Assembly: GCF_964204645.1 (NCBI RefSeq)
Contig: NC_134036.1
Coordinates: 10,953,859-11,017,858 of the forward strand
Direction: 5' to 3'
Origin: Tubulanus polymorphus
Lineage: Eukaryota; Animalia; Nemertea
DNA: 64,000 nucleotides
Made by a program: the position numbers and the translations under genes. Position 1 is the first letter of the stretch; each line of letters opens with the position of its first letter. The notes under the pieces were generated by a model that saw nothing but the letters and a program-made list of their open reading frames with translations, made no database searches and was not told where the DNA came from. Positions 4,076 through 32,705 of the stretch are shown here, piece after piece.

Positions 4076-5015
4076 GAAAAGCTATGTTGTGTATCAATCT
4101 GGAATTTTCGGCACAATATCCGATGCTAAATACCTTGCTTTGAAGGTTTATTTGGTGTTAATCGGATCCAAAATGTTTCTAATATTTTGTTCATAACTTT
4201 TGAAGTGGAGGCCGGTGTCGTGTGTAAGGCTGTACGTACCGGGTACTGGCGCTTACAACAGGCGCATCATTGATGGTGTATTTATGCGCGAGTAGATGAA
4301 ATGATTGAAATTTTAACCGCTAAATCGGCGTTCATTACGCATCCTTTCAAAATTAATATTTATTTAGATATCTTTATCATGATAATTATAATATTCTTAA
4401 GACAAGCGAATTACGTCTGTGGACCTATTTTATTGAGGCGTATCACGCAATCTGAAAAAAAAATCATCCGATCCTGTCACGTGACTTCATGACTGCAACT
4501 TGACGATAGCTTAGGTTCTCATTCTTCGAACCAAAAATGACCTTCCCATTCCTGACTGTGGTTTGTGAAAATATCCGATCGTGAAACTTAACCACAGTCA
4601 GGTTACGGACCACATCAAATTGTGACAAGCCCCCTGTGTTCCGACACCTTTCCATCTTGAATCACCTTTAACCGTACAAAAGAAGTATTCGATTAATAAG
4701 TAAATTTACTTACTGTATTTCAATGTTGAAATGGTTTGAAGACATTCTGTCGGTTCTGCGTTGACAGAGAAGCTTCTAAATATTTCAAGTAAAAATTGCA
4801 ATTGATTCGTCCGCCATCGAATAATGTGTGTCTGCAGAGTTTCCAGAACCTGTCATGTCAAGTCCCAAAAAAACCCGAACTCACGACAATATTTGACGAA
4901 ACGGCGAAATATCTAGACATGCGCTAGACGAATGGAAGAACATTTTGAGTTGAATGAATATTCTGACCCGTCGTAAATATCGAAAATTATTCAACAATAA
5001 CGATAAGGAAAATGT

Positions 5016-6010
5016 TCAGGGCTGCGTTTTTAACCGCACGCCGGTGCAATGAACCGTGATCGTACCGTCGGTGTAAGGACGGCCGTGACCGCGATCATTC
5101 TGGCTTTCGCCGTACGCCCGCAGGGCGCTCGCCAATAGACCGGGTTCTACGTACGGTTCCAGGCCGCTGCCGTCCCCGCACATGGCGAGTTTAAACTTTG
5201 TCCCAGCCATGCGTCCCCGGCCGCGTCAGGTGTACGTCGAGCCTGGTGACATCCTTCCCGCACAACGGACACGGCCTCGATTTCGCATACCGGGCATTGC
5301 CGAACTTGAGCCGTACTTATCCGCTTTCTCCGCTGAGGAACGGGTTCGTGGTTGCGGCAGCGGCTGCGGCTACTTCGGCCGACGTTCTCGCCTTCGTCTT
5401 CGTCGTCGCTGTCGGCGTCCGCTTCTGATCCCGGGTGGTAATCTTCATCGTTGTTGTCTTCGGCGTCGTCGTCGTCGGAGTCGGTATAATCGGCGGCGCG
5501 AAGATCGTCTTCGTTCGCTACGAAATCGTCGTCGTCGTCGTCCGATTTGGAGGATGGATACGTTTAGATCTGGAAAAGAAAGAAATTCGCGCACAATCGT
5601 CGTTTTTCGATCGACCGACACGACAATTACCGCCCGCCCGCCCGCCTGCCTTACAAACGGTAACACGGCATACTTACGTTTATTTCACCGAGCGGACACT
5701 TGCGCAACAGCAACAGGTCGTCGTCGTATGTATTGGATTTTTCCGTCGATTGCGCCGCAGGCATCCAGACGCTATCGTATTCCGATGACTCGTCGGCGGG
5801 ATAGTTGAGGATCTGGAGACCGAAACGAAAACAAATGGCTATATAATCCCAGCGACGCGATCGAATAGCGACGGGCGGAGAAAATCGAGCGACCGGGTTA
5901 CGAAAGAATACTTACGGTTATATCGCCCTGCGGCATGTCGGTGACGACAAGCTCTGAGTAATTGGAAAAGTGGGCTTTCATACCAGAGTACGAGAGTACT
6001 AGCTCTCATC
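5016..6010 (-). pseudogene. GC-rich spliced gene remnant with an acidic tract and a C2H2-like finger, probably TE-derived
   Basis: GTAAGT..CAG introns at 5914-5813 and 5677-5570. The exon between them (5812-5678) is open. Next come a TAA, a D/E-rich run and, in another frame, CPLCGKDVTRLDVHLTRPGTH. Confidence 0.45.
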
Positions 6011-6037
6011 ACCATAAGTAATTTTTTTCCCTTATAA

Positions 6038-9000
6038 ATGGGGGAGAATGAACACCAACCAGAAAACAATAATGTTAATAAAAATCAATATTATTGCCCA
6101 TATTGTAAAAAATACATCGATAAATCTAATAAATCTAAACATGAAAAATCTTCAAATCATATAAAAAATGTTATAGATTTTGAAACTTCAGAAAATTCCA
6201 ATGAAAGAAAAGAACGATTAGAAAATATGAATGTGGATGAAATAAAATGTGAAGTTTGTAATGAATTTATAGTAAAAAGGAATTATAATAGACATCTCGA
6301 ATCACAAAAACACCATCAAAATTTGAGTAATAATGTTTTAGGAAAAGATTATTTCGATGATAAACCTCAAAAGTAAAAAAAACCAACCTCAAAAACAAAA
6401 TCCATTTCAAATAAACCTTACATGGAAAATGTTAGAAATTATATTGATTCACTAGAAATAAAAGATACAATTGAAATTTTAGGAACATTACGTAGTAAAA
6501 TTGGTCATGCAGCTATTATATTTAGATTTTTTAAAGGTACAACAATACAAGATTATAGTAAATTTAATGAAATAATAGAAACAATACTAGATTTGATAAC
6601 AGATGTTGAATATCCAAAAATTAGTATCTCTGGGAAAGTAAGTTTTTTAAAGTCAGAAGAGAAAATGGATTATAATATTCAAACACTCTCTGAAGAAATA
6701 ATTTCAAAAACGCAAATAAAAGAGAAGTTAGAAAAAATATTTAATGAATTGAAACGTCATATTGAAGAAAGATATTTTGAGGGTTCTGGTTTAACATTGA
6801 ATGGAATTATATTTTTAGATTTAAATGTTTATAATACAAAAAGGAATAAAACATCAAAAAGTAAAACAATGTTTAAAAATGATTCAAACTGTACTACAGA
6901 AAAGGATATTAAAGCATCGAGTTAAATTAAATTACCATTCACAACAAAAGCAGTAATAAATGTTCAAAATGAAGATAATAAATGTTTTCTATGGTCAATT
7001 ATTAGTTGTTTACACCCAACAGAAGATATAACGCATAGTTTTAGAATAACAAATTACTAGAAATATGAAACATTATATAAAATTGATCAATATTCAGTAA
7101 CTATATAAGAATGATTCCTAAAATAGAAAAAGTTAATAATTTAAAAAAATAAATGTATTTGAATTAATGCAATTACCAAAGACAAAAAGGTGAAAATATT
7201 AAAGATTATACAGATTATAAGATTTAACAGAATATTATGATGATGAAAATGCTATAGATTTGTTATATTACAAAAAAGATGAAAATGAACATTATATGTG
7301 GTTAAAACAAATTGATTTATTCTTTAGAACAGAAAGTGATCATCATCATAAAATTTATCTATGTAGAAAATGTTTATCTAAATTTATGTCTGAGAATACA
7401 TTATTAAAACATAAAGAATTATGTGATTATAAAGATTTTTGTAAATTAATAATGCCAACAGAAAAAGATTATAAATTGAAATTTACTAATCATAAATTTA
7501 AGAATATTGTTCCATTTCTAATTTATGGGGGTTTTGAATCGTTGAATAAAGAATTAACTGATCAAGATAGAAAAGAAATATATAACAAAAAGCAATTATT
7601 AAAATCAATGGATAAAGGAAATGAATTAAATGAAGACACAATACAAGACCCACCAATTATAAATACAATTTAAAAAGTTCATCAAAGAGCTGCTGCTTAT
7701 GGAATTTACATCAAATCAAATTATCCTGAATTATATGAAAGTCAATATATTTCTTTTAGAGGTGAAGATGTAGTTAATGATTTTATTACAAAAATAATTG
7801 AATTAGAAAGTGATTTTGCAAAATTATTAAACAAAAATAAAAGAATAGTTATGACAAAAGAAGATGAAATTGATTGAAGATGAATTTTAATTATGCAACT
7901 CATTGTTGTTATTGTGAAAAACGTTTTTATTCATTTGATAAAAAAGTTAGAGATCATGATCATTTAAATTCAAAATATCGTGGAGCTGCTCATGAAGATT
8001 GTAATTTACAAGCTAAAAAAGTAAATTTCGTACCAATATTATTTCATAATTTATCAGGTTATGATACCCATCTATTTATAAAACAATTATCGGGAAAATT
8101 GTGTGCAATTAATCAAGAAATAGAAGAATATAATGCTATGAATGGGGTAAATGTAAGAAAATATGATTTTTAACTATTAGCTAAAACATCTGTAAATTAT
8201 ATTTCAGTTCAATTTGGTTGCATTAGATTTTTAGATTCTTATAGATTTCTAGCAAGTTCATTAGATAATTTATCAAAAAGTTTAGTTGATAATGATTTTG
8301 TTATAACTCGACATTATTATCCAAATGAACAAGATTTTAAATTATTGAGATATAAAGGTGCAATTCCTTATTCATTTTATAAAACACATGATGATTTTAA
8401 TGTAACAGAATTATTAAAAGATCCATTGTATGATCAATTAAAAGAGGAGTTTGTGAAAGACGAAGTGTTTAATAGAACATTAAATATTTGGAACCATTTT
8501 AAGATGAAAAATCATGGTGAATTAGTTGATTTATATTTAAAATCAGATGTTATGATATTGGCTGACATATTTGAAAAATTTAGAGAAGTTAATTTGAATC
8601 ATTTTAATGTTGATCCTTGTTATTGCTACTCTAGTCCTGGTTTAACCTGGCAATGTGGTTTAAAATACACAAATGTAGAGTTAGATTTATTAAAAGAACC
8701 AGACATGGTTTTATTATTTGAAAAATCAATTAGAGGTGGAATTAGTGGTGTTATGGGAGATAGATATTTTAAAGCAAATGATGAATATAGATTATTATAT
8801 ATTGACGCCAATAATTTATATGGTTGGGCAATGATGCAACCTCAACCATACAAAAATTTTATATTAACAGAAGTTGAAAATGATGATAAAACTGATTGGG
8901 AAAGCGCAATTGCGAGTTTAAAAGATGATGCACCAATTGGTTATTTCTTTGTAGTTGATTTAGAATATCCTGAAGATTTAAAGTTTAAAACAAGAAACTT

Positions 9001-10738
9001 ACCTTATTGCCCAGAACATTTAACCGTAGATGATAGTTATTTAAGTGAACACCAGAAGAAAATAAAACCGAAAGATCATGTTTTTACAGAAAAATTAATA
9101 CTTACTCAAAATAATAAATACAATTATATCGTTCATCATAGAATGTTAAAATTTTATCTATAACAAGGAATGAAATTGAAGAAAAGGAATGAAATTGAAG
9201 ATAGTACATAGATATATTGAATTTAATCAATCGAAGTGGTTAGAAAAATATATCGATTTCAATACTCAACAGAGAACCATATCAAAAACAGATTTTGAAA
9301 AAGATTTCTTCAAATTAATGAATGATAGTTTTTATGGTAAAACATGTGAAAATATTAGAAATAGAAATGATATTGAATTAGTAATAATTCTGAAAGATTA
9401 AGACATTAACAATCAAGTCCTAGACATTTAGGAAATAAAAGATTTGAAGATTATTTAACAGCAGTAAAATTAAAAAGAACGTCAATGAAATTTAATAAAC
9501 CTATATTCATTGGTTCAACTGTTTTAGAAGTATCAAAATTATTAATGTATGATTTTTATTATAATGTTTTACAACCGCTTTTTGGGAAAAAGCATATTGA
9601 AATATTATTTTTTGATTCTGTAACAGCTGACACCCCAATATTATTAAAATGTAATGATAAAATATTGATAAGAAGAATTTCAGAAATAATTCCAAAACAA
9701 AATGAATGTTATATTTCATATGGTGAAAAAGAATTGATATAAATAAATGGTTTAATGGATGTTTGGACAAGAAATGGATGGAAAAAATTAAAGAATATTA
9801 TTAGGCATAAAACAAATAAGAAGATCTATAGAGTTAGAACTAAATTAGGGTTTGTAGATGTTACAGAAGATCATAGTTTAATTAAACGAAATGGCGATGA
9901 AATAAAACCAACTGATATAAAAATTGGAGATGAATTATTACATAAAAGATTTTTCCCAAGAATGAATCATATGTCATTTGATGAAATAATTGATAATATT
10001 TATAATAAAGAACCCGAAACATTAGAAGAAAAAGAATATTTTATCAAATGATTTTTTATGGGAGATGGTTCAGCAGGTGTGTATAATTATGTTTGGGGTA
10101 ATAAATATTGTTGGTATTTATGCAATCAAGACTTGAAATTATTAGAAAGAATTAAGAAATTCTGTGAAGAAGTTTATTCACATAAAACATTTAGAATCCT
10201 GGATGTTATGAAATCATCAGCAGTTTATAGAATACTTGTAAATAATCCTAAAGATTTTGCTATAAAATATAATGATGAATTCTATATTCATGCAATAGTG
10301 AAAAGTAATACTTCAACAAAAGAAAAGATAGTTCCAGATTATGTATTAAATGCAAAAGATAATTTAAGAAAATGGTTCTTCATTTGATTCTACGCAGCAG
10401 ATGGTGCTAAAAATTTACGAGTTCTCCAGCAATATCTTTAGCTCAAAACGGAAAAGTTGCTATATCAGGGTTAAACATATTATGTAATTCATTAGGCTTC
10501 AATATGAATATTGGATTGATTAAATCTAAACCAAATTGCTTTAATTTAAGCCACACAGAAAAAGATTTAACTGAAGAAGTTATAGATTTATTTGAAATAT
10601 ATAACCCAACAGATTATGTTTATGATTTATCAACTGAAGATCGTACATTTAACTGCGGATTTCCATTAATTTGCTTCAATACTGATGCGTACATACTAAA
10701 AATCAAGACAAATGACATAACAAAAGACTTAAAAACAC
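6038..10738 (+). pseudogene. Protein-primed family B DNA polymerase (pPolB), intein-containing, degenerate and 3'-truncated
   Basis: Collinear with the E2 pol: N-terminal Zn fingers, NKCFLWSIISCLHP, DHDHLNSKYRGAAHEDCN, FHNLSGYD, YIDANNLYGWAM, KLMNDSFYGK, FD/TDAY. Multiple stops and frameshifts, including a 19-bp tandem duplication near 9167-9200. Confidence 0.93.
9617..10680 (+). mobile_element. Intein with LAGLIDADG homing endonuclease in pPolB motif C (decayed)
   Basis: Begins SVTADTPILL directly after ILFFD. Block B VDVTEDHSL; LAGLIDADG blocks FIK*FFMGDGS and FFI*FYAADGA; block F/G VYDLSTEDRTFNCGFPLICFN followed by +1 Thr (TDAY). Absent from the E2 pol (YFD|TDSY). Confidence 0.93.
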
Positions 10739-10744
10739 CCATTT

Positions 10745-11137
10745 AAATATGTTACAAAGTTTGTTTCAAATAAAAAAGTAAATGGTAAAGAATTATATGA
10801 AGATTTATTATTAGCAACACCTAATAAAGATGAATTAGATTTAACCGATGCTAATAAAATATTAGGATCAAACATTGTAAATGAAATATTAGGAGCAAAC
10901 ACTAATAAAGATGATAATGAAAATATAGTTACAGATATTGATATTAAAGATTCTATGAAACATAAAGTAGAAAATAGTGATAAATTTGATTGGATGAATA
11001 AGCATAACAGTGAAACAACTATTGATGATGCGATAAAAAGGGTGAAGAATAAGTATAAAAATAATAAAGAATTTGAAGAAAAAAATTCGGTAGAGAATTT
11101 GAAAAAAATGTTAGGGTATGATAGTGAAAGTGATTAA
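10745..11137 (+). pseudogene. 3' part of an E1 hypothetical gene joined to the truncated pol by a deletion
   Basis: Pol homology ends at DLKT (about 10738). An AT-rich open frame follows, ending LGYDSESD*, with no obvious counterpart in E2. Confidence 0.5.
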
Positions 11138-11170
11138 AATATTAATTATATTTAACTCAAATAATAATAT

Positions 11171-11535
11171 TAGTTCAAAATTGTATAAAATAATAGTAAA
11201 TAAAAAAGGGGGTTTTAAGTATTTAAGGTATCTAATACATATCTAATACATATCTAATTACATATTATTTGAAAATACCTTAAATTATATTTCTTTTTTA
11301 AATTTATATTGAAACCTCAGTAATAATATATAACCTTTATTATTTTCAAACTTATTCATATAATAGTTGAAAAAATAAAAATAAATTGGTTGAAAATTGT
11401 ATAGATAATATTTATTTTAAAAAAGGGGGTTTTAAGTATTTAAGGTATCTAATAGGGTATCTAATACATAGTAGGTATTAGGGTATCTAATAGGGTATCA
11501 GGTATTAGGGTATGTAATACATAGGTATACTAATA
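11171..11535. repeat. E1 convergent intergenic region with direct repeats and (GGTATCTAATA)-type short repeats
   Basis: AAAAGGGGG(G)TTTTAAGTATTTAAGGTATCTAATA occurs twice (about 11203 and 11420); many TATCTAATAC/GGTATTAGG units. Confidence 0.7.
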
Positions 11536-11536
11536 G

Positions 11537-12148
11537 TTATTTTATAAATTTATATTCATAGGGAAATTGTAGTCTCAGTAATAATTTTGAACCTTTATTA
11601 TTCTTTAATTTATTCATATATTCATCATGTAATTCAGTAGGTATAATTTGATTTTCTTCCAATGATTGTTGCATAGATTTTCTATCTTTATTGTAGAATA
11701 AAACTAGAAATCTTATATTCTCCCTAAAGTCTTTAACAATTGAATTATGTTTTTGATTTAAAACCCATGTTGTTATCCCAAAATGTCTCCCAGAGAAAGC
11801 TAAGTAACATAACTCACTTTCTCTCACTTTTGAATCATGTAAATTAGCGCAATCATCTACAATGAATAATGTATTTGATCCTTTATAAGTATCAATTGCT
11901 ATTTTTATACAATTATCTAAATTTTCTTTTACTGTTTTAGGATCTAATATAATAAACTTTTTTATTTTAACTATATCCCTATTATATGTTTTATTCATTT
12001 CATAAGTAGGACCGAATAATATTATATTATCAAAATGATTCTTATAAATAGTTTCTAACAAATCTAATATGAAATGTGTTTTACCACAATTGGTTACTCC
12101 AGTAACTAACATATTATGCGGTTCAAATATAAATAAATCTTTATTCAT
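11537..12148 (-). CDS. A32/FtsK-family packaging ATPase (E1), intact, 203 aa
   Basis: Walker A GVTNCGKT, Walker B LFIVDD, SGRH motif, LNQK. Confidence 0.92.
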   Translation of the reverse strand: MNKDLFIFEPHNMLVTGVTNCGKTHFILDLLETIYKNHFDNIILFGPTYEMNKTYNRDIVKIKKFIILDPKTVKENLDNCIKIAIDTYKGSNTLFIVDDCANLHDSKVRESELCYLAFSGRHFGITTWVLNQKHNSIVKDFRENIRFLVLFYNKDRKSMQQSLEENQIIPTELHDEYMNKLKNNKGSKLLLRLQFPYEYKFIK

Positions 12149-12354
12149 TTATTCTTTTAATTTTACTAGGTAAAATCCATTCATTAAATTTATCATCGTA
12201 TCCTTTATATTTCACCAAAGAATACTTTTTTCCTGTAAGTTTTTGTTTTCAATACTTTTTCTATTTTGTATTCTATTTCATCTGGATTTGGTACAAGTGA
12301 TAATTCTTGTTCATAGAAATAACCTAATATTTCTTCATCTTTTAGATCTTCTAA
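12141..12354 (-). pseudogene. C-terminal (chromodomain) fragment of the E1 integrase
   Basis: Near-identical to E2 33617-33830 (LEDLKDEEILGYFYEQEL...YKIEKVLK); breaks off at 12354. Confidence 0.85.
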
Positions 12355-14017
12355 GTAACAGCTTTTGAGAAATACTGATTCCGAATGCTGACACTGGAAT
12401 AGTGTACAGAATATAGGGTAAACGACAATATATTTATATATTATTGCGATATGATGTTGGCATTGAGCCAATTCATGTAAAATCGCGCTACGTTTTTTTA
12501 TGTGAGCATTTGTTTCATTGGTTCTCGGCTTAAATTACGTATAATCGATGCGATTGAAGACATGGCGAACCATCGTCGATGACATGGTCAACTGAGTTAA
12601 AATTCAACGAAAAACTGTTTTTTGCGGGAAAATTCTTAGCTCTCGCTTATAAAATTTTATGAATAATAATAATGACCTCGATATATTCTACGAGCGAATG
12701 GGATTGGCTGTTTTTGGGATATACGGGGAATTCCGGCATTACTAAAATAATTATGGGAAAGCCATAGAATGGCGTAGGTTTCATTAGACTAGGTGCCGTA
12801 TACATGCGAACTTTAAATGCTCATTGCTGGTGAGGATGTAAATATTTCATACATCCGCCATAGGTATTGTTTCATTGTAATACCCGGTGATTGTTTTGAA
12901 TGAAATTTAAGTGTAAGCGAACATTCACTTACACGAGGCCTCCACGTGCGCACGGAGTGCTACACGACACTCACACAAGCTCGTACAGTACACTACTAAT
13001 GGTGATGATGTAACGCGTGCACGTTTGGCATGAAAATAGGCTGAATGATCCTAGCAGAAGATGAGCGCTGTAATAAATTGCAATTTCTTGTGACCTGAAA
13101 ATATTAAGCAGCAATCCAAAGTATAGGTCGAGGTCTAAATGTAGTAGTCGTTAATTCCTGGATATAACACGATCTGTTATATATTATATCTATTATAACA
13201 CGAACCGGTATTTTAACTTGGCCGCCAACATTGGAAGAGGGGTTTCGAAGACCCAATATTCAGCCACCCTCTGAGATGTGACATCATATGAATTTTAGGC
13301 CATCCCATGTTAATGGTCTTTTTGCCATACCCCCACCGACCCGACTTCAAAGGTACCGAGTGAAAACTTTTTATTGGGATTCATTGAAATACATTTTATT
13401 TTTGATAAAAACGGCCGACCGACCCACTGCCTACGTATGAGGTACGTATGTTTGAATTCAAGTGTGCATCGTGTGAAAACATGCCTTGACATGGGGCCTA
13501 ACTTAAGTTTTCCAGGAAACTGGCAGTGTTCCAATAAGCTGCCATTCATTCTCATAGTGACTATATTAAAAAGCTGGTAACGTACAAGCGCACATATTCA
13601 ATGTACTGTTTCATTTTTAACACAGAGATGACGCTCTGGACGAAGTTATAATTTTAGAATAATTCTCGAAATCTACGCTATTAGACAAATTTCCCGTGCA
13701 CTACGGAGATGATTTTTCAAACAATGCCCTCATTCCAAACAACCTTTAGCTTTCAAGGTAAACCACACTTTGCCCATGGGCATTTTATTATTCAATATCC
13801 AGCATTACAAAGTTTCTTTAATATGGATTGTACACGGACACGCTATCTCTGCAGTGACAGAACCAGAACCGTGACCGGTGTACTAGTATGCAGTGTCATT
13901 GTGTACACTTAAATGACAAGACATTGACATGAATGGACACACCCGTGGCGTCAATCAACTTTTTTTTCAACTATAAAGGACAAAAAGGACGATGGTATTT
14001 AAATAATGTTTATGAAA

Positions 14018-15500: not shown

Positions 15501-16532
15501 TAAACGAGGTTGAAGAGAAACCAGAGTACCTACCTACCCTGAGTCCTCGAGGTATTCATACCCCGAAACCATTACCTTTACACACGGTGTTTTACTTTCG
15601 ACAAAATTTAGATTTTTTCCCGCCACAAAATCGGTCTTTTAGCCAGAAGTTTCCACAGATTTCAGTCTGAATTTTATCCAAATTTATATCACATTTAATA
15701 AGATCAATCAACAAGCAATGATGCTACAGTTACAAATATATGATTATATTCATGACGATGGTATCTCGTTTTCCGTGAGTGCTCGGTAAATTCCGTCAAT
15801 CTCCGACTAGGGGCACGACTCACACTCGGCACCCTCTTATGTGACTCGGACCAAATCGTCTCAGTATGATCGCGGCTAAACATTAGCTAAACTGCCTAAC
15901 TTTGGAGTGTCATAGATTCGAACACAGTTATTACTGAACTAGGTTTCTTTAACAGTACAGAATATTTTTTATCTTAAAATAAGGATTGACCCAGTTATCT
16001 ATTTGATTGGTAAATTCCGTTTGATTCTCGATCTTGGTGTCCCTACAAACCCACCACACCTGCCGGGAGCGAAACAGGGGGTTTGTTATCGGCCCCGAAT
16101 GACCATACAAACTGTGAAATGAGAACTCTCGTATTCATGTGTGTGGTTTGTGTGAAAGCGATGCGCGATTATTTCAGTAAAATATTCCAGAAAGATTCAC
16201 CTTTATCTACATAAATATGTATGAATAGAGAAAATTTAGTACCGAAGGCTTAACAAAACTTTATCTAATAAGATATGAGAATTAGTTTCAATTCACTCCT
16301 CTCCGACCGATCTAGAACACATCTATTCAAATGTTCCACGATGGTCTATAAGCTGAACTGCATTCAACAGAGATGAAATAATGATAACTTGGTAAAACGT
16401 GGCTTGATTGGTCCGATATACTCGGCAGGAGTCTGATGTAACCAGGGTTCAATTTACTTCAATTTATCATTTAACAGATCGTTCAACATGATTCGTACAA
16501 TAGGACGCTACCGATAGACACATCAGTCGAAA

Positions 16533-17611
16533 ATGATCACTACTAGCGACAATACGACAAGTGGCCCGGTCCCGCAGCTCAGCTGGTGTCAGAGAGTCCA
16601 AACTCGTCCGGTTAGATTTAGGTTCAGTTTCAACATTAGAATGTATTTAGGATGTTATCTACCGGCGTCTGTACTGGGTATAACATTCAACGCATTCACG
16701 TTGTTAGTTCTAAAACGGTTTAAATCTGATGTTTATTTTCTCATCAAAATTCTCGCTATAAACGATATTTTGTTTATGGTCGCTACATTCATTCTTTATC
16801 CGCTGAGAACTGCGTACATTTACGTCGTTTTGGGAGATATTTTGTTCCGCGTAGATGACTGGATGTTCGGGTGGATTTTTTTTTTAATATCTTTGCCGTT
16901 TTTTTATATATTTCAGATGACACGTAACTGGTGCACTGTACTGCTCAGTCTAGAGCGGTTAATCGTCGTATTGTTTCCAATAAAATCTCGTAGAATTCCC
17001 AGAAAGCTGATCGCACAGGGCGCAATGTTATTTATTTCTTTGTTGGCTTTTTGTGGTCATTTAGGTCAATTTCTACCCCGCAAACATCTTGGATTCATGA
17101 ACTGTCCTTACTATTGGCCTTATATCACAAGACGGCGTGGAGTGATCCGGTACAATTTTGCAATATCCTTCTGGATTTATTCAGTTTCTGAGCGTATTTT
17201 TTTCTTCTTTCTCACTGTCACGTTTCCACTGTTCATTTTGGTTTTCATCAATGTAATTCTTATTTCGGTGACATTTTACCGTCGGGTTACTCGACTTTCA
17301 CAGCTCGGTATAACTGATGAATCGTCTAGAAGGGAAATGAGGGTTTTAAGGATGGTTTTATCAGTTGTTTTCGTGTTTATTATTTGCGAAGGTTTGGGAT
17401 TTGTGGATCGTAGAAGAAATTTGTTCCCCATAGGAATTATCGGTTTTTCTTTTAGATTAATCGCTTGGCATTTTCTATTGTTGATTCGTCAGTAAATTTC
17501 ATTATATATTGTGTGACAAATGACAAATTCAGAAAATCGTCCTTTGACATTCTAAGTAAAGCTTGTTCTAGAAGAGGTTCTTGTTTTCGATGGATAGCTG
17601 GCGTGAGTTGA
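16533..17611 (+). pseudogene. Intronless rhodopsin-family peptide GPCR (FMRFamide-receptor-like), one frameshift before TM7
   Basis: TM1 GITFN, TM2 LAINDILF, TM3 RNWCTVLLSLERL..V.FP, TM6 VFIICEG. TM7 DSSVNFIIYC and helix 8 KFR are in a shifted frame ending TGA at 17611. Confidence 0.82.
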
Positions 17612-19600: not shown

Positions 19601-20619
19601 TCATCCTCATTGTTCAAGCTCCACACGACTGTATTCAAGAAGAAGTATAAGCACACATTCATAATGGTCAAAATTTGACCACTTCTTTCATTGTTTCATC
19701 CATATTTCACAATTTCCTAAAAACTCATTGCCTGAAAGGAGATCCACATAGTGGCAAAACAAAATGAAGTTTCAAAATTACCAACCAAATGTAATAACTC
19801 ACTTGTGTAAGCTTACATGTTGATGGGAATTTTATTTTCAAATATTTACAGATTTACTTCGTCAATTTATACTGTTTCAGCATTTGTCCAATTTTCTTTC
19901 TAATTTGGGCCGCGATAACCCCCAATCAACAATTCAGAACATGATCTGGAATGAGACAAAATTATAAAACATTCAAATACTACACACAATTCCAAACAAT
20001 AAATCAATCAATCAATATCCCTAATATCAATCATCTGATGAAAAAAGCCAAAGTTACATTATTATGATAAGTGAAACCAGATCGAAAATAAACGGCGCTA
20101 CTTTTACACTAGCTTATAAATTTTTTCAATCAACACTTACCATAACAGGACTCAAAACCTCTTTTTCAGTAATTTGTTCCGGCTGAAAGTATACGTTTCA
20201 TTCTCCATGTAGATAAATTACTACTCGAGGAAATGTACTGACTCCCTAGATTAATAACGGAAAATTCCATTTTAATTTGTAAATGATTCATTCAAATGTA
20301 GAAAGAATTGGCAAATACTGTTCAATACCGGCTGATCATTCAGTTTAGGAATTATACAGTATAGTATGCAAACGAGTGTCTTTTTCCTGGACATATCGTG
20401 ATTTGATTATTATTCCATTATTTAACTGAAATGCACACGGTTATGAAAATATATTATAGTTTCAAATTACTTTTAATATTTGTTTTTAATGAACTCGACC
20501 ATTCAACCTTTAACCCGAAAGCCCATTACCCCTATTACTCTTAAAATATTCATATAAATGAATAACATTTAAATCATTGAACTTCTAAAATCAATTTTAA
20601 TAAAAAATTTAGTATTAAA

Positions 20620-23600
20620 ATGGAAGCAAATAAGTACTACTGTCCATCATGTAATATCAATATAGATAAATCCCAAAAAGCAAGACACAATAAAACTAAT
20701 ACACATTTAGAGAATAAATTGAAACTAGAATATAAAGATGATATATTAGAAACTAAATTAGAAGAATTAAAGAATGAAAAAGAAACATATAAATGTGATG
20801 CATGTAATCAATCATTCAGTGATAAAAGATATTATAAAGAACATTTAAAATCTATAAGTCATATTAGAAATAAGAATAATGATATTTTAGGTGAAGATTA
20901 TTTTGATAATGATAACGATAAGAAACAGAAGACAATTAAAAGCATAAAAAATAAATTAAACAATAAAAGACCATACATGGAAGATGTAAGAAATTATATT
21001 AATTCATTAGATAATAAAAAAGATATAGAGATAACCGAAGCATTTAAAAGTGATATTGGCCCAGCAGCTATTGAGTTTAAATTTCATAAAGGAAAAACAT
21101 TAGAAGAAAATAAAAAACATTTAGAAAATATGAAAGAAATAATAAAAATAATAACTGATGTTGAATATCCTAAAATAAGTATTTCATCAAAAGTTAAATT
21201 CATAAAATCTGAAGATAAACCAATATATAATATAAATTCTCATTCACAACATATTATATCTAAACAACATATAGATCATAAATTAGATAAATGTTCTAAT
21301 GAAGTAAAAACTAAAATAGAAGAGAAATATTTTGAAGGATCTGGTTTAATATTTGATGAAATAATATTTATGACTTTACATGTTTATAACACAAAATATA
21401 ATAAGTTAACTAAATCAAAACCAATTGATGAAAATAATTTATCATATTATAAAGATGATAGTATAAATGGAACAAGTTATAATAAACTACCATTTAAAAC
21501 TTATGCTGTAATAAATGTACAAAATTTTGATGATAAATGTTTACTATGGACTATAATAAGTTGTTTACATCCTGCAACTAATAATATTTGTAGATTAACT
21601 CATTATAAACCATTTGAAAATAATTATAAGATAGATAAGTATCCTGTTAGAATTAAAAACGTCCCAAAGATAGAAAGAGATAATAATTTAAGAATAAATG
21701 TATTTGATTTAATCAAATTACCAAATACAAAAGGTAACAATATAAAACATTATACATTAGAACCTTTATATCTATCAAAAGATTATGATTCAAATGATGT
21801 TATAGATATATTATATCATGAGAATCATTGTATGTGGATTAAACAAATAGATTTATTTTTTAAATCAGAAAATGATCACCATAAAATATATCTTTGTAGA
21901 AAATGTTTACATAAATTCAGTAATGAAAGTACATTATTAAATCATAAACAATTATGTGAAAATCATGATTATTGTAAATTAGTTTTACCAAATGAAAAGT
22001 ATAAAATATTAGAATTCAAAAACTATGATTACAAAAATAAAGTACCATTTGTAATATATGGAGATTTTGAATCATTAAATAAAGAACTAACTGATCAAGA
22101 TAGAAAAGAAATATATTATAAAAGAAAGAAATTAAATTCTAATGAAAATGATTTTTCAGATGAACCACCAAAAACAAATACAATTAAAAAGATTCATCAA
22201 TCAGCTGCTGCTTTCGGGTTATATATAAAATCTGATTATCCAGAACTAATTGAAAGTGAATATTATCATTACAGAAATGAAAATGTTATCAATGATTTTT
22301 GTGACTTATTAATTGAATATGAAATAAGATTTAGTAAATTATTGAATACAAATATAGAAATTATAATGACAGAAGAATTTAAAGAAGAATTTGTGTTTGC
22401 AGGTAAATGTTATTATTGTGAAAAGATATTTAATTATAAAGATAAAAAAGTAAGAGACCATGATCATTTGAATGGAAAGTTTAGAGGCGCTGCACATGAA
22501 AATTGTAACTTACAAGCTAAGAAAATTAACTTTGTACCAGTTATATTTCATAATCTATCAGGATATGATGCACATTTATTCATCAAACAGTTATGCCATA
22601 AAATAGAAAAAATCAATAATGAAATAGAAATATTAAATTCAAATAGATCAAAAGATAAAATACCAACTTATAAATTTAGAATGTTAGCTAAAACATCTGA
22701 GAATTATATATCATTCCAATTTGGGTGTTAAAGATTTATAGATTCATATAGATTTTTAAATAGTTCATTAGATAACTTACCAAAATCATTAGTTGATGAT
22801 GAATTAAAGATATTAAACAACATTACCCAAATAATGATGATTTTAAATTAATGAGATATAAAGGAGCAATTCCATATTCATTTTATAAGAATCATAATGA
22901 TTTCAATATAACTGAATTATGGAAAGAACAATTCTATGATGAATTAAAAAATGAATATGTTAAAGATGAAGTCTATAATAGAACATTGAATATTTGGAAT
23001 CATTTCAAAATAGAAAATCATGGACAATTAGTAGATATATATTTAAAATCAGATGTATTATTATTAACCGATATATTCGAAAGGTTTAGAGATGTAAACC
23101 TAAAATATTTCAATATTGATCCTTTTCATTGTTATTCATCACCAGGTTTAACATGGGATTGTGGATTAAAATTTACAAATATAAAAATGGATTTGTTAAC
23201 AAATATAGATCAATTATTATTATTTGAAAAATCTATAAGAGGAGGAGTTTCAGGTGTATTAGGGGATAGATATTTCAATGTAAATGATAACCCCGGATAT
23301 AAGTTATTATATATAGATGCAAATAATCTTTATGGTTGGGCAATGATGGAACCACAACCTTATGGAGTATTTGGATTTAAATCTAGAAATCTAGCATACT
23401 GTCCCGAACATAAAACTGTAACTCATGAAGAATTATCAAATTACCAAAAAAGAATTAAACCCGAAAATCATATTCATACAGAAAAGTTAATGGTAACTCA
23501 AGAAGATAAATATAATTATGTAGTACATTATAGAATGTTAAAGTTTTATTTGAATCAAGGAATGATCCTAAAAAAAGTACATAGATATATTTCATTTAGT

Positions 23601-24522
23601 CAATCTAAGTGGTTAGAAAAATATATAGATTTTAACACCAAACAGAGAACTAAAGCTAAAACTGATTTCGAAAAAAGATTTCTTCAAGTTAATGAATAAT
23701 GCATTCTATGGTAAGACTTGTGAAAATATTAGAAATAGAAATGATATTGAGTTAGTCAGTAATGGTAAAAGAATTAGACATTTACAAACATATCCTAAGT
23801 TCATTGGAAACAGAATATTTGATGAAAATTTAGCCGCAGTTAAGATGAGAAGAACATCAATGAAATTTAATAAACCAATCTATGTTGGCGCTTCAGTTTT
23901 AGAATTATCAAAATTACTAATGTATGAATTCTATTATAACGTATTACAACCTCATTTTGGAGAAAAACATATAGAAATATTATATTTTGATACCGATTCT
24001 TACATATTAAAGATAAAAACTGATAACATAACTGATGATTTAAAAACATTAAAACATCATTTTGATTTTAGTAATTATCCTAAAGATCATGAATTGTTTA
24101 GCAATGATAATAAAAAAGTTCCCGGTAAATTCAAAGATAAATTAGGTGGTGAAGAAATGATTGAATTCATTGGTATTAGATCTAAAATGTATTCATATAA
24201 AACTAAAGAACATGAAGCTAAAAAGTTAAAAGGAATAACCAAAAGTGTAGTAGAAAAGAATATTCATTTCAAAGATTACATCAATTGTATATTCAAAGAA
24301 GAAGTTAGAAAACATAAGATGAGATGTTTAAGATCTGAAGATCATGAAATGTTTATTGAAGAAATTGAAAAGATAAGTCTAAACCCATTTGATGATAAAA
24401 GATATATTTTAGATGATGGAATTCATACAGTTGCTTATGGTTGCAATTTAGATGAATACTTAAAATTTAAAAGAGAAGAAACAAAAGAGAACGAGATAAT
24501 GAAAAGAATTCTAACGTGTTAA
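20620..24522 (+). pseudogene. pPolB of E2 (intein-free), with Zn fingers, a vOTU-like region and an EndoVII-like Zn domain
   Basis: DKCLLWTIISCLHP, YGDFES, DHDHLNGKFRGAAHENCN, FHNLSGYD, YIDANNLYGWAM, MNNAFYGK, YFDTDS, KMYS, KLKG, FDDKRY. TAA at 22729 and frameshifts near 22820 and 23670. Confidence 0.95.
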
Positions 24523-24551
24523 TCAAATTTTAATAAAAATATGTTATTAAA

Positions 24552-24911
24552 ATGGAGAGTAAACAAGCACACAGTGAGAACAACAAATTATTTCTAGATA
24601 GAATTAAACATATAACAAATGTAAAATCTGTAGATTATAAACTCAAAAAGTTAACAGAATTAACAATTGATAAGAAATATCTAATTACAAATATTGATAC
24701 AGTTACTAATAACTATGGAGATAAATTAGTTATACACTTAGAATATGAAGGATTAAAAGGAAATACATATAAATTCAGAACATATTTACCTGATAGATTT
24801 CATAGATTATCAAGTGAAGATTTAGAAGAATTATGTTCTGGAGATTTCTATTTCGTATACAAAGGTAAGAATGGGCACCAAGAGGGGCACCATGAAATAG
24901 ATTTCGAATAA
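24552..24911 (+). CDS. Conserved Polinton small protein, 119 aa (possible OB-fold DNA-binding protein)
   Basis: Intact ORF right after pol with motif KKLxEL..Y.I...T..YG...YLPxRF; the fold call is inference. Confidence 0.6.
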   Translation: MESKQAHSENNKLFLDRIKHITNVKSVDYKLKKLTELTIDKKYLITNIDTVTNNYGDKLVIHLEYEGLKGNTYKFRTYLPDRFHRLSSEDLEELCSGDFYFVYKGKNGHQEGHHEIDFE

Positions 24912-24928
24912 GAAAATATGTAAAATAA

Positions 24929-25690
24929 ATGGTAGAATTAAAAGAATACAGAATATTTGTAGATTCTAGAAGACTTACAAATTATAAATCTCATAATTTA
25001 CTAGTTCAATTAGATAGGGAATATAAAAATTGTGTAGATTTAAAATTAGTAAATATAAGTTTATGTAACTCATTTTACAGTATATCGAATAAAACTATTG
25101 AACAAAGAGCTTTTTTAATTTTTAATAAAAACAAAAATGAATGGGTCTATATATATTTAAAACCAGGGTTATATAATTTAGATACATTGGCACAAGAAAT
25201 TAATAGAAAAGCCTGGCACAAATTAGGTAGTAGTTCTGGGTTTAGTATTAGATTTTTAAAAAGTGAGAGTTCTGATAGAATAAAGATAAGGTTGTCTAAT
25301 AGTGAAAAACATAAATTTATCGTAAAAAAACCTATAGCTAAACTGTTAGGAATTCTTCCAGATAGATCTTTTACAAATATTGATGCTGTTACACCAAACT
25401 TAATACCTCACACACATTTTTATATTTATTGCAATTTAATCGATCCTACAAAAACATTCGAAGCAACTAAAGATATAACTTGTAATTCTGGTTTACTAAA
25501 CATTTTACCATTGAAGAATGTTAAAGAATTTGGAACGCAAATAAATTATAATTTAACAGAGTGTGATTTCAAACCTAGCATTCCTCGTTTTAATAATTTT
25601 AGATTAGAAATTAGAAATCATAATGGATACTTAATTGATTTAAATAATTTCCCTGTAATTTATGAATTAGTTATAAGATGTAGAGAGTAA
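24929..25690 (+). CDS. Minor capsid protein (penton), 253 aa
   Basis: IFVDS start, PGLYN, LLGI, FYIYCNLID and C-terminal LEIRNHNGYLIDLNNFPVIYEL, typical of Polinton/virophage pentons. Confidence 0.8.
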   Translation: MVELKEYRIFVDSRRLTNYKSHNLLVQLDREYKNCVDLKLVNISLCNSFYSISNKTIEQRAFLIFNKNKNEWVYIYLKPGLYNLDTLAQEINRKAWHKLGSSSGFSIRFLKSESSDRIKIRLSNSEKHKFIVKKPIAKLLGILPDRSFTNIDAVTPNLIPHTHFYIYCNLIDPTKTFEATKDITCNSGLLNILPLKNVKEFGTQINYNLTECDFKPSIPRFNNFRLEIRNHNGYLIDLNNFPVIYELVIRCRE

Positions 25691-25707
25691 TTTTTTTCAC
25701 TATATAA

Positions 25708-26049
25708 ATGAATATAACTGTTGGACCGAGTATATGTTTTGGGTTTGATTTTAAACATGGTAAAGAAATGAGAATTAAACTAAATGATGTAATTACTGAT
25801 ATAAAAAGTAAATCATTTAACAATGCATCAATGATTGATAAAGAAAATTATAATATAGAAAAAGTAATTGATTTAATTAAAACGCCTTTAGAATATTATG
25901 AATTAAATGAAGATGGAATTATTGAAGATATCAAAAACATATTATCCAAAATATATGATAATCATGAAAGTAGTAATGAAATAAATGTTGAATTAATCAT
26001 AAATAAGATAACTAAATATTTTGATGATAGTAATTTCTTTAATAAATAA
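25708..26049 (+). CDS. Hypothetical viral protein, 113 aa
   Basis: Intact ORF with the shared TAATTTTTT-N-TAAATG start context. Confidence 0.65.
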   Translation: MNITVGPSICFGFDFKHGKEMRIKLNDVITDIKSKSFNNASMIDKENYNIEKVIDLIKTPLEYYELNEDGIIEDIKNILSKIYDNHESSNEINVELIINKITKYFDDSNFFNK

Positions 26050-26271
26050 ATGAGTGATAATAAGTGGATAATAACTGGATTATATAATGGAGCATTACTA
26101 TCAGTTGGAACTGTTGGTTATTCAATGGTATTAAAAAAAGTATTCAAAATGGGAAGTGTTAATGTTGATAGATTTGATATAAATGATATCTTAAAATTAA
26201 CATTAGGAGTTACTTTATCTAATTTAACTTTTGATTATTTGGAAAAACAAAAATATATTCCTCCCATATAA
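26050..26271 (+). CDS. Small hydrophobic viral protein, 73 aa
   Basis: Intact ORF with two amphipathic/hydrophobic segments; the upstream gene's stop forms TAAATG with this start. Confidence 0.7.
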   Translation: MSDNKWIITGLYNGALLSVGTVGYSMVLKKVFKMGSVNVDRFDINDILKLTLGVTLSNLTFDYLEKQKYIPPI

Positions 26272-26295
26272 ATGCGTAATTATTTTACTAAATAA

Positions 26296-26718
26296 ATGGC
26301 TTCTGTAATTATAACTATTATAGGATCAGCAATTGTTAACGCTTTAGCATTTACTGGTGGTGGATATTTATTTAAACATATTGATAAAAATGGTTCATTA
26401 ACAGAACAAAAAAGACGTAACTTAGCGTTAGAGAAATACAATAAATCTGCAGAAGAATATAGAGAAAAAAGACAAAACTATATGGATTATATTAACAAGG
26501 AATTATATGATCAGAAGATTTCACATAGAGATTTTCAATCAGTTGATGATGCAATGAGTTTATATAACGCGGTAACCAATAAAGAAAAATAACATCTATA
26601 CAAACCCAAATTATCAGATTATTATACCCCAAGTAATGAACAGAAGAAATATGAAATAATATGGATTTTAGGTGGAACAGTTATTGTTATATTTGTTGCT
26701 TATAAGTTTACTAATTAG
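26296..26718 (+). pseudogene. Viral membrane protein (N- and C-terminal hydrophobic segments, central coiled coil), one in-frame TAA
   Basis: AIVNALAFTGG..LF...E.KR; frame continues past the TAA at 26590 through PKLSDYYTPS..IIWILGGTVIVIFVAYKF to TAG at 26718. Confidence 0.75.
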
Positions 26719-26738
26719 TAATTTTTTTTTCTAAATAA

Positions 26739-27173
26739 ATGGAAGATAAAGTTGATAATATTGATATTATTCCTCATGATATAAATAAAAATAAATTGAA
26801 AATATATTTAGAAAAACAAATATTAGAATTTGAAAGTGACTTAAAGATAAAAAAGAAAAAATATTTAAAAAGTAAAATTATATATTATTTGATTATAAGT
26901 GGTTCGGTTACAATTAGTTCTGTAATAACATTTCTAGCAATATTCAGTCCATTAACACCATTAGCTATATCAATTGGCGTATTAGGATTAAGTTCAAGTG
27001 TTTTAACTGGTATAAGTTCAAAATTAAATATAAAAAGTAATAAAGAAAAAATTAAAACTAATATAAAAGAAATTAATAAATTGAAGAATACACTAGATTA
27101 TATAATAAGTTTAAATGGCCATATAACAGTTGAAGAACAAGATAAATTATTTAAAGAATTCGTTAATTATTAA
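26739..27173 (+). CDS. Two-TM-helix viral membrane protein, 144 aa
   Basis: Basic helix, hydrophobic hairpin IIYYLIISG...LGLSSSVLTGI, coiled-coil tail. Confidence 0.75.
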   Translation: MEDKVDNIDIIPHDINKNKLKIYLEKQILEFESDLKIKKKKYLKSKIIYYLIISGSVTISSVITFLAIFSPLTPLAISIGVLGLSSSVLTGISSKLNIKSNKEKIKTNIKEINKLKNTLDYIISLNGHITVEEQDKLFKEFVNY

Positions 27174-27189
27174 TTTTTTAATTATATAA

Positions 27190-28424
27190 ATGGGGTTTCC
27201 AAAAGCTTTCCAATATAATAAATCAATTAAATATAATATTCCTGCAATAGATTTTAAGAAAAATATTACATATAGAAATGTAGTTTTAAATTCATTAACT
27301 AATTTAGAAATTTATGTCACTGAATCACAGTTTTTTATTTCTAAAATGGAAAATGTATTTAATACATATGAAGTTACTTTTACTCGAGATGAATATCATA
27401 TATATAAAGTAAAATCTAATATGAAATATTGGCAGAACCAATTAGATTTTGCTGTTTATTGTGCAACAACAGGATGTGGAATAAGTTGGAATGATCATTT
27501 AAATAACTTAGATAAAAATTTGAAGTATTCTGATTTAAAATTAATTCACACAATATTTAGATTTCACACATATTTTCAAATCAGAATAATATTAAATGAA
27601 TTAGAATGTCCTTTACCCGGGTCTAAATATTTTAGAGAATTGGATAATAATATTAATCTATCTAAGTTTTATAAATTGAAGAGTTTGAAATAAAAAGAAT
27701 TGATTATATGCATAGAATTTCAGCTTATCATAATTATAAAATTGATAATAATAATGGTTGGGTTAATTTCATTTTAGAAAATGGTGAAGGTTTTACAAAA
27801 TCAGGTATACAAAGAATAAATCAATCTATTAGAACTTATTTGATATGTATTTTAGGTGCGCAAGTTGAAAAAAGATCCCCAATAATTGGAAATTATAACA
27901 CTTCATTCGATGCGCAGAAATAGTTTAAAGTATTATTTGAAGATTCAATTCATAATGATAAAAATAGATCGATTCCAGAAAACATTGTAAGATATCAAAA
28001 TTATTTAGATAAATCACATATTAGATTAAATTATTGTATAGGCCCTAATCTATTTATTATTTCTAATGATTTAGTATTAAAGATGGGAAACATAATTGGT
28101 TATAATAATCTAATTAAAACTGCAACAATAAATAATTCATTTGGATTAAATGATATAAATAAAAAGATTATCACTGCTCCAAAATTAATGGAAGGTGAAA
28201 AAAATAAAAAACATATTCAATCAACTGAAACTAAAACTAATAATATTAAATTAAATAATGATTCTAAAATAAAAGATTATAATACATCAGAAGATATAAA
28301 AACTGATATTATTCAACATGATATAATTAAACTAAATGATGATAATAAATCCCATGAAAATACTAAATTAGCTATAACTTGTATAGGAATTGTAATCGGA
28401 GGAATATTATATTTTAAGATTTAA
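27190..28424 (+). pseudogene. Conserved Polinton protein with a C-terminal TM anchor, disrupted
   Basis: YWQNQLDFAVYCATTGCGIS, RINQSIRTY..ILGAQ, C-terminal LAITCIGIVIGGILYF. Frameshift near 27690 and TAG at 27921. Confidence 0.75.
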
Positions 28425-28440
28425 TTTTTGTATTATGTAA

Positions 28441-30118
28441 ATGGCAGAAGGTGGAGAAGATTTTCCAATGGATCCTTTAGATGAACCTGGTGTAAGTGAT
28501 GAACAACAACCTGATTTTGGTGAAGCAAGTTTTAGTAATGATAATAAAACAGAATATAATACTAATTTAGATGAAGATGATGATTATGATGGAATTAATT
28601 CTGAATTACGTGAAAAATTAAATAAATATTTAAAAGCTCCTGAAAGTGGTAGAATTTCAACTAGAAGAGAAAAAAAAAGAATTTATGGAACTATTAGAAA
28701 AACAACAAGAAAAATATCCTGATAAACATATGGAATTATATAAAATGAAATCTAGAGTAACAGATACAATTGTTAACGAATTATTACCAATAGTTGTAAT
28801 ACATGAAATTGATACTGAAGATGTTGTAGAACAAATTTTAAAAGATGACCCATATTTCACGAATAATTTAGAATTTAAAAATGATTCATGGTATTATAAT
28901 GTTGAATTAAATAACAAAACTGCATCAATACAATTATCTAAAATGGGTCAAGAAAATATTTTTGAACCTGAAATGTTAGCAAGATCTACAATTGAACGTT
29001 CAAAAGGTGGCGCAGAATTTCTCAGAATTATATGGAATGCACTCGATAGAATAAATAAAGAAGAACCAATTCCTAATATTGATATAAACAAATATTCACC
29101 ATTTAAAAATCCAAATCCAAATCCTACTGATTTTGATCCAGAAATGGAAGAGAATAGAGATCGATTAGATAGATTAAGATCTTCAACACCCGAAACATCG
29201 AGAAGAGACACTCAACCAATTGATAATTATTCAAGTCAATTAAAATTAGAAAAACAAATTGATAGATTAAGAGATTCAGAAAAAGAGATGAATAGTGCTG
29301 GAATAAATCGACTGCAATATTTACTAGAAAAAGGATTTCTTAATTTAACTGATGAAGAATTAGAAACATTTCCCGAACAAATACGTAGAGAAATTAAAGG
29401 TATACAAGTATCAGCTGATGAAATTGCTAATATTAAGATGAGATTTTCTAAAATAACCATGTTAGAAAAAGAATTAGCTAATGCAGATGAAGAATTAAAA
29501 CAATTAGAATTAAATAGAGATCATCAAGTAGTTTATGAAGCTGATTATGAAAGTAGAAAGTTAGCTTTAGTAAAAGAAATAGATGATTTAGAATATAACA
29601 TAAAATTACAAAAAGAAGAAAGTGATACATTATTAAAATCATATGATCTTAATCATATTAAAAAATTAAAAGTTATTTTTAAAGATTTAATAATTAAACA
29701 AGATTCTAAAATATCATTGAAAGATAGAATAAAGTTATTATTTAATTTAGAAGGAATAACAATTCTTTCAATTCTAACAGCTGTAACTATGTTATTTACA
29801 ACAATTGGTTTAGCAATATCAAATGCTTTAAAATCTACTCCTACTCCCAATGAACCGGATAAACCCCCGAATGATAATAATTCTATACAAGATAAAGTTA
29901 AAGATGGTTTAAAGAAATTAGCAAAATATTTATGGGAACTATCTAAAAAATCTGCTGCAGCTTTACCAGGAATTATTGCATCAATTGTTGGTTTTATATT
30001 GAAATCTGCAGGAAACATTATTAACTTTGCTGCTGAACATATTATTTTATTTTTAATTACAGTTGTAAGTGCTATTATTTTTGGGTTAGTGAATATGATA
30101 TCAAAAAATATCAAGTAA
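28441..30118 (+). pseudogene. Large acidic/coiled-coil protein with C-terminal hydrophobic helices (candidate membrane-penetration protein), one frameshift
   Basis: MAEGG start; frameshift near 28650-28680; C-terminal GITILSILTAV... and ALPGIIASIVGFIL...AEHIILFL segments. Directly upstream of MCP. Confidence 0.75.
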
Positions 30119-30157
30119 CCATGATCAAAAATAAATAATTAATTTTTTGTTAAATAA

Positions 30158-31406: not shown

Positions 31407-31438
31407 AATTTTAACTTTAATAAAAATTTATATAATAA

Positions 31439-32605: not shown

Positions 32606-32705
32606 TTATTATAAAACTATTTATATATCTGTAAAACTATTTATATATCTATGCACTAGACGTATGAGTAAGAAAGTAAGAATCCAAGAATCCTTGCCAA
32701 GAAAT

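Follow-up and report, generated by a model that had tools for sequence, protein, structure and literature searches.

A protein-primed DNA polymerase (pPolB) gene of a Polinton in the genome assembly of the nemertean Tubulanus polymorphus is interrupted by an insert of 1,064 nt (354.7 codons), located at positions 9617-10680 (+) of the analysed stretch of DNA (64 kb, here called the window; NC_134036.1, positions 10,953,859 to 11,017,858). The insert is a broken copy of a full-length pol-c intein, located in motif C of the polymerase. It belongs to one clade of inteins that probably passed into Polintons a single time, from a polymerase of the giant-virus type, and probably spread by homing. 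The window copy itself is dead. Its intein, including the LAGLIDADG endonuclease, is decayed by three in-frame stops and one frameshift, and the polymerase around it is broken and truncated.

The insertion point lies between ...ILFFD and TDAYILK, within motif C of the Polinton polymerase (FFD/TDAY, with the slash marking the site). The N-terminus of the insert reads SVTADTP, with Ser1 as the nucleophile of block A (9617-9655, +), and the C-terminus reads GFPLICFN, ending in Asn and followed by Thr as the +1 residue. Block B (VTEDH, a TxxH motif; 9860-9874, +) is near-invariant across 70 aligned relatives. Two LAGLIDADG helices, each with a stop inside, were located from sequence and alignment at about 10043-10072 and about 10379-10408 (both +), and blocks F and G (VYDL ... 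GFPLICFN) plus the +1 Thr are found at 10615-10683 (+). The initial annotation had described an insert of about 355 codons between D and T of motif C, with Ser1, TEDH, two LAGLIDADG blocks, a terminal Asn and a +1 Thr. All of these residues are present, and the boundary is confirmed by an empty allele (ILYFD/TDSY, no insert) in a second Polinton of the window, element 2. DNA similarity between the intein-bearing element 1 and element 2 breaks exactly at 9616, so that the boundary of the insert is set without reference to motifs; similarity between both polymerases picks up again at about 10680. By DNA comparison with element 1, the empty site (YFD/TDS, junction 23991/23992) is located at 23983-24000 (+).

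Profile scans of the insert were performed with stops read as X. The N-terminal piece reaches 31.4 bits against TIGR01445 (intein_Nterm), above the curated cut-off of 24.5, matches Pfam Intein_splicing at E 6e-5, under the family cut-off, and matches PI-PkoII at E 1e-5. The C-terminal piece (last 81 codons) has no family match on its own in these scans; its identity to the corresponding ends of related inteins is 64-68%. The Hint domain expected at the outset is thus recovered through the N-terminal piece. Given the in-frame insertion in intact relatives, the splice residues and the Hint match, the insert is a class 1 intein by sequence, and splicing is predicted for its intact relatives. Its insertion at YxD/TDS and its grouping with inteins of that site likewise mark it as a pol-c allele on sequence grounds.

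The in-frame stops are located at 9740, 10049 and 10385, two of the three within the LAGLIDADG helices, and the frameshift lies between about 10410 and 10440, in agreement with the three stops and one frameshift counted initially. Intact relatives of the window intein are in-frame insertions; the window copy acquired its frameshift later. The polymerase of element 1 is also broken upstream of the intein and ends about 57 nt past it, damage that was missing from the initial annotation. The deletion that truncates it starts at this point (10737), and a link to repair of a break near the homing site is possible.

A penultimate Phe in place of His, also reported initially, is present in the window intein and in none of 98 related inteins (His 62, Lys 33, Ser 3). 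A penultimate His is usual in class 1 inteins and not obligatory. The Mimivirus intein has Lys at this position, so His does not define the pol-c allele, and the nearest C-terminal relative, P0010, has Lys as well. The Phe was considered as a functional variant and rejected for want of support. It is probably a product of decay in a dead copy rather than a mechanistic variant.

The window contains two Polintons, element 1 (about 5950-12354) with the intein and element 2 (20406-38378) without it. The N-extein of element 1 (6038-9616, +) is a pPolB gene with several stops and frameshifts, matches PF03175 at E 1e-14 and is 71-76% identical to the element 2 pPolB at the DNA level. The C-extein is reduced to a remnant (10681-10737, +), at the end of which similarity to the element 2 pPolB stops in the DNA comparison; the remaining polymerase is absent. 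Joined to the truncated polymerase is an open frame of 134 codons without assigned function (10733-11137, +), which matches no Pfam family and lacks a counterpart in element 2 and elsewhere in the window. It is covered at about 113x in raw reads and is therefore probably a gene of the intein-bearing family. Further along, an A32-type packaging ATPase (11537-12148, -; PF04665, E 7e-11; 97% DNA identity to element 2) and the 3' end of an integrase-chromodomain gene (12149-12354, -) are encoded, the latter forming the right limit of similarity to element 2 in the DNA comparison. The gene content of element 1 is confined to pPolB, the ATPase and this integrase end. The capsid gene is gone, and the element is without inverted repeats.

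Element 2 (no strand assigned) is a near-full-length decayed Polinton with 328-nt inverted repeats (97%), pPolB, a probable major capsid gene, ATPase and integrase (PF03175, PF00665, PF04665 and a weak Capsid_N match at E 0.002). Its polymerase is split over three frames. No protease gene was identified in either element. The outer ends of the inverted repeats of element 2 are ragged, and no clear copy of the 6-bp target duplication typical of Polintons is seen. The inverted repeat (regions 20406-20733 and 38051-38540) covers the start of the polymerase gene, whose first codons therefore occur a second time at the right end, on the minus strand. A 59-nt inverted pair (38297-38355 and 38482-38540) forms a further hairpin-like end there. 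A frame of element 2 at 35985-36734 (-) has a CxxC pair, a YHIDH motif and one stop, and no Pfam match at E 0.01; we take it to resemble an HNH-type nuclease of the giant-virus kind.

The two elements are unequally similar along their length. The ATPase-integrase block (11532-12354 vs 33009-33832) is 97% identical, the polymerase (6245-9616 vs 20791-23991) only 71-76%, and raw-read depth about doubles over the shared block. Together, these values suggest an exchange of modules between families or a chimeric element 1. Rhodopsin-class GPCR frames of the host are located between both Polintons (16518-17495, +; PF00001, E 1.5e-9) and further downstream (59760-60956, +; PF00001 and PF10324), where all eight nearest Atlas clusters shown are animal. 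Both frames are intronless and peptide-receptor-like, with GPR139-like and molluscan chemosensory receptors among the nearest Atlas clusters. A GC-rich low-depth island (5089-5808) with a 239-codon frame without family match adjoins the left end of element 1.

Relatives of the intein are found in a number of other pPolB proteins. The X-read piece of the window matched 18 proteins among 506 candidates, 10 of them with Polinton-type flanks and with up to 79% identity over part. A query with P0004 yielded 623 longer proteins, and 12 of the 120 listed are of the pPolB type. Full-length, unbroken pPolB precursors with an intein are represented by P0037, P0039, P0041, P0042 and P0043. Ser1, TxxH, both acidic motifs of the endonuclease, block F, the terminal Asn and the +1 Thr are conserved in each of the 11 complete pPolB inteins examined, whose identity is only about 45-65%; LAGLIDADG_3 scored above the cut-off in all five pPolB relatives scanned. 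The structure was predicted for the P0039 intein, which stands in for the window copy (63-64% identity to the window pieces), and reached a pLDDT of 94.3 from 70 sequences. Among PDB entries the model matches TliVMA best (E 1e-18), and also PI-PkoII, PI-PfuI and PI-SceI; it superimposes on I-DmoI with an rmsd of 2.7 A over 186 columns. Among named viral proteins, phycodnavirus, Pandoravirus, Marseillevirus and Megavirus polymerases match best. P0042 stands apart, with an intein 43-47% identical to that of the window in a polymerase barely alignable with the others (best E 5e-4).

Wider searches mainly returned inteins of RNA-primed polymerases. With a profile search, 675 clusters were recovered at E values up to 1e-30. 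Among the best 150 matches, 137 were new, comprising 124 RNA-primed PolBs and 13 proteins unclassified by BLASTP (one of them a Polinton-type fragment); a new full-length pPolB intein was absent among these best 150 matches of the 50%-cluster search. A DNA pattern of the intein C-terminal motif was found at 15 loci in viral contigs, 13 of them labelled giant-virus MAG; each of the 15 is similar to the Mimivirus polymerase and none to a pPolB query. The same pattern was found at 11 loci in metagenomes, one of which (L024) is a pPolB, and at 0 loci in prokaryote genomes. In a related-locus search of viral contigs the window piece gave one weak match (28%) and P0004 none; an Atlas search with P0039 returned only leads under 0.9. 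The metagenomic contig L024:1-4198 (4,198 nt) encodes a pPolB with the intein C-terminus in a separate frame and is probably the source of P0047. It is probably another broken member of the pPolB intein clade. Inteins of the same sequence group also occur inside type II topoisomerases (P0113, P0144, P0437 and P0441). The two topoisomerase junctions printed lie after D and before TD, as at the pol-c site, which may point to further jumps between unrelated genes.

The phylogenetic position of the pPolB inteins was reconstructed in two unrooted trees. In a quick tree of 98 rows, 12 pPolB inteins form one side of a branch with SH-aLRT 100. In a tree of 54 hand-chosen rows (LG+G4), to which 10 inteins of giant-virus MAGs and the 20 new RNA-primed inteins with the best scores were added and from which partial inteins were excluded, the same number of pPolB inteins group together with support 100/99, the bootstrap being not fully settled. 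The other rows stem from RNA-primed polymerases (nearly all of them in the 98-row tree), and the labelled ones are giant viruses. The sister of the pPolB clade differs by tree, with Mimiviridae ChoanoV1-like inteins in the 98-row tree and another protein (89/95) in the 54-row tree. A specific link to ChoanoV1, drawn from the former, was dropped since the latter did not settle the sister. Intein diversity is far greater on the RNA-primed side, so that the likely direction of transfer, as judged from these trees, is from giant virus to Polinton. The trees narrow the likely donor down only to the pol-c inteins of RNA-primed PolBs, whose named members are giant viruses, and a route through protist Polintons is possible.

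The distribution of filled and empty alleles was compared with the polymerase phylogeny. Among the 120 polymerases nearest to the window extein (extein-only query), 2 are filled, 73 are empty and 45 are not callable. By sequence, the 73 empty sites divide into TDS (36), CDS (24) and TDA (13) types. When the 12 filled alleles are placed on an N-extein tree of 51 chosen rows, 11 changes are required, no fewer than after shuffling (mean 10.9), and at least 8 of these are forced by well-supported branches; monophyly of the filled alleles is rejected (AU p 1e-4). P0042 was kept out of this tree because its polymerase barely aligns; its intein nevertheless lies inside the clade. The window extein groups with empty alleles (P0193, 80%) and the window intein with that of P0039, whose extein is 55% identical to the window extein. 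Separate trees for intein and extein, as proposed at the outset, accordingly disagree: the pPolB inteins are one clade and the filled exteins are scattered. The initial annotation had further proposed that an NCLDV-type intein moved into a pPolB and reached an animal germline via a Polinton. Its statements on identity, site, host gene, animal context and giant-virus affinity hold. A single jump into this genome does not, the window copy being a decayed member of a clade found across several Polinton families.

Allelic differences close to the site were seen in one of the two clusters examined, the P0037 cluster (136 members), where the 15 members listed comprise 7 filled, 6 empty and 2 that fall short of the site. 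Between filled and empty alleles, identity is 98.5% over residues 1-990 but 84% in the stretch reaching 45 residues to either side of the site, and this stretch contains all 10 fixed differences (10/90 vs 0/1,101 columns). The comparison covers 13 of the 136 members and was made on related protein sequences, with a width picked from four after seeing the data, so that a Fisher test on these columns yields no valid probability. Homing with co-conversion from a donor family would predict, and so explain, this pattern. Escape of empty alleles from cutting by mutation may give the same picture and would also imply an active nuclease; ordinary recombination may produce it as well. In the P0045 cluster (121 members), 740 of 746 extein residues, those of the flanks among them, are the same in the empty P0177 and the filled P0174. 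A conversion tract is therefore not visible in this pair, for which precise loss may be the explanation. The filled copies of the P0037 cluster are 97.9% identical in the intein and 99.3% in the N-extein, which does not suggest a very recent sweep.

Copy number was estimated from raw reads. Parts of the region 9300-11000 occur in 5 of the 11 sequencing runs listed, four of which belong to one study under one organism label (36-43% of words). None of them is an RNA run, which bears on expression in neither direction. Reads of one run from another study with the same label were mapped to positions 4500-13500 at 88% likeness. The flank (5102-5703) has a depth of about 12.5x and the extein directly upstream of the intein one of 271x; within the intein, depth is 233-234x over the first half and 137-143x over the second. 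If the flank is single-copy, roughly 10-20 intein-bearing copies result, a rough figure since the baseline is only 600 nt long and strand-biased. These depths suggest roughly 10-20 related intein-bearing copies in T. polymorphus, with most close copies filled. At the second stop (10049), the window sequence is contradicted by 240 of 242 reads, which makes this stop private to the window copy. Among 15 of the 183 read joints, none skips the intein. A joint of 8847 with 10970 was set aside as a likely chance match, its short side being only 29 letters long.

An origin of the element in a protist symbiont or contaminant, misjoined into the animal assembly, is very improbable. It would fit with the absence of a read or contig spanning the whole stretch among those listed, with the only contig that leads from the low-depth left flank towards the element stopping at 5983, too short for a bridge, and with the near-absence of letters private to the window copy from the raw-read run, in which individual this exact copy is scarcely represented. 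However, the four runs of one study and the reads of another, where the intein exceeds the flank depth more than tenfold, carry the same organism label. An animal GPCR separates the two Polintons, which have a 97% identical module in common, and the pattern of decay fits an old integrated copy. The element is likely contiguous with animal DNA.

Two further explanations accept the intein as a genuine part of these elements and differ on homing. One ancestral gain in a Polinton polymerase, followed by vertical descent with many precise losses, would leave homing without importance. The single clade of pPolB inteins, the intein subgroups that loosely track extein subgroups in the polymerase class of the window, and P0177 as a clean empty allele of P0174 are compatible with such a history. 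It is nonetheless improbable in view of the changes forced on the 51-row tree and the presence of the intein in only 2 of 75 callable near relatives. The window intein is also nearer to that of P0039 than the window polymerase is to its counterpart, and vertical descent leaves P0042, the site-centred differences of the P0037 cluster and the endonuclease motifs kept in 11 of 11 inteins unexplained. Alternatively, homing could take place only in free-living or protist-infecting Polinton-like viruses, with animals receiving ready-made elements whose intein, once integrated, is inert and simply carried along. In this view the intein has the identity and origin of the preferred explanation, and only the place of homing differs. 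Several intact relatives on short metagenomic contigs, the death of both window elements and the infection of protists by giant viruses with pol-c inteins (according to the accessible parts of PMC549080 and PMC5784728) speak for this alternative. It is doubtful all the same: one 90% cluster has both filled and empty alleles on contigs of 0.1-1 Mb, a length that suggests integrated copies. Moreover, the multi-copy state of the intein in T. polymorphus implies that filled elements likely replicated and integrated there, which would need splicing.

The chemistry and the insertion site of the intein are already known; its host class and setting are new. The initial reference to YxD/TDS as the site of archaeal and giant-virus PolB inteins agrees with the accessible text of Ogata et al. 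2005 (PMC549080). There, the pol-c inteins (position III, YGD/TDS) of Mimivirus, other Nucleocytoviricota and archaeal PolB share with the window intein the motif C site, Ser1/TxxH/Asn/+1 Thr, LAGLIDADG and a length of about 350 residues. Pieces of the window intein are 32-41% identical to the Mimivirus and ChoanoV1 inteins, and a C-terminal FNxGFPLI motif is common to the window intein and giant-virus MAG polymerases. Known pol-c inteins reside in RNA-primed polymerases (PF00136), whereas the window host is protein-primed (PF03175) and its gene is part of an integrating element of an animal genome; the pPolB inteins also form a clade of their own. As far as the accessible parts of both papers go, HNH and VSR nuclease inserts are known in Polinton pPolBs (Jeong et al. 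2023, PMC10748475; Krupovic et al. 2024, PMC11161782), and one sentence of the latter suggests that they stem from intein invasions. They have in common with the window intein that nuclease domains lie inside Polinton polymerases. In contrast to those inserts, described in these parts without a splicing domain, the window holds a complete Hint and LAGLIDADG intein that splits a catalytic motif. The word 'intein' is absent from the main text of Jeong et al. as available in PMC10748475.

Inteins in eukaryotic nuclear DNA are known from fungi, protists, Anaeramoeba and endogenised giant-virus PolBs of algae, likewise with viruses proposed as carriers (PMC5784728 and PMC10710043, in part). In these accounts neither an animal host nor a Polinton is involved, whereas the carrier here is a multi-copy endogenous virus in an animal. 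The accessible part of PMC5784728 counts 257 inteins in 231 eukaryote species, none of them animal, and that of PMC10710043 contains neither 'polinton' nor 'animal'; 'intein' is absent from the corresponding parts of PMC8502044 and 10.64898/2026.10.13.758929. The initial statement that inteins are essentially unknown from animal nuclear genes needs narrowing in two respects. The host here is an endogenous virus gene and not an animal housekeeping gene, and an intein is already known from an insect-infecting virus, the Chilo iridescent virus, in which it sits in ribonucleotide reductase. This iridovirus intein, cited in the accessible text of PMC549080, likewise belongs to a virus that replicates in animal cells. 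It differs from the window intein in being Gln-type, in residing in a non-integrating large virus and in not being part of a polymerase. No description of a Hint-LAGLIDADG intein in a Polinton polymerase was found in the accessible literature on inteins, Polintons/Mavericks, adintoviruses and virophages; the same holds for the available parts of PMC12220804, PMC3749507, PMC13768754, PMC3671162 and PMC5718144. The pPolB intein clade is apparently undescribed and is present in at least one animal genome.

Splicing of class 1 inteins involves an acyl shift at Ser1, transfer to the +1 Thr and cyclisation of Asn. In an intact Polinton, the polymerase would be made as a precursor containing the intein, from which Ser1, the Thr and His of block B, the terminal Asn and the +1 Thr, all observed residues, would excise the intein, rejoin YxD to TDS and restore the active site, as expected from the class 1 mechanism. 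The freed endonuclease would then cut the empty site of another Polinton copy, met during co-infection or integrated in the same nucleus, and repair with the filled copy as template would carry over the intein plus some flanking polymerase sequence. The first jump between polymerase classes would most likely have occurred during co-infection of one cell with a giant virus and a Polinton-like virus, and the short conserved sequence of motif C may have helped. The window copy presumably reached the germline within a multi-copy Polinton family and then decayed with its host element, the decay being observed. Intact Polintons would be expected to splice the intein in animal cells. More tentatively, the giant-virus intein, once in pPolB, might now act as a natural homing drive among dispersed Polinton copies in animal germline genomes. 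Splicing would be required for replication, the endonuclease would convert empty copies at other loci while dragging along flanking polymerase sequence, and surviving empty copies would have diverged, cut-resistant sites.

In the preferred explanation, an intein has jumped between polymerase classes that share little beyond motif C. In the accessible text of Ogata et al. (PMC549080), ordinary homing between polymerases is thought implausible even for closer ones than these. The pPolB inteins would mark past contact between giant viruses and Polintons. Filled and empty alleles within one family would make homing, co-conversion and resistance readable from genomes. The intein hosts named in surveys of eukaryotes are fungi, protists, plastids and large viruses, with no animal genome and no Polinton in the parts available (PMC5784728, PMC10710043). 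A multi-copy, endonuclease-bearing intein in an endogenous virus of an animal would constitute a route for inteins into animal germlines. Whether animal genes are without inteins because these never arrive, or because they are unable to spread without germline homing, is a question that may now be testable.
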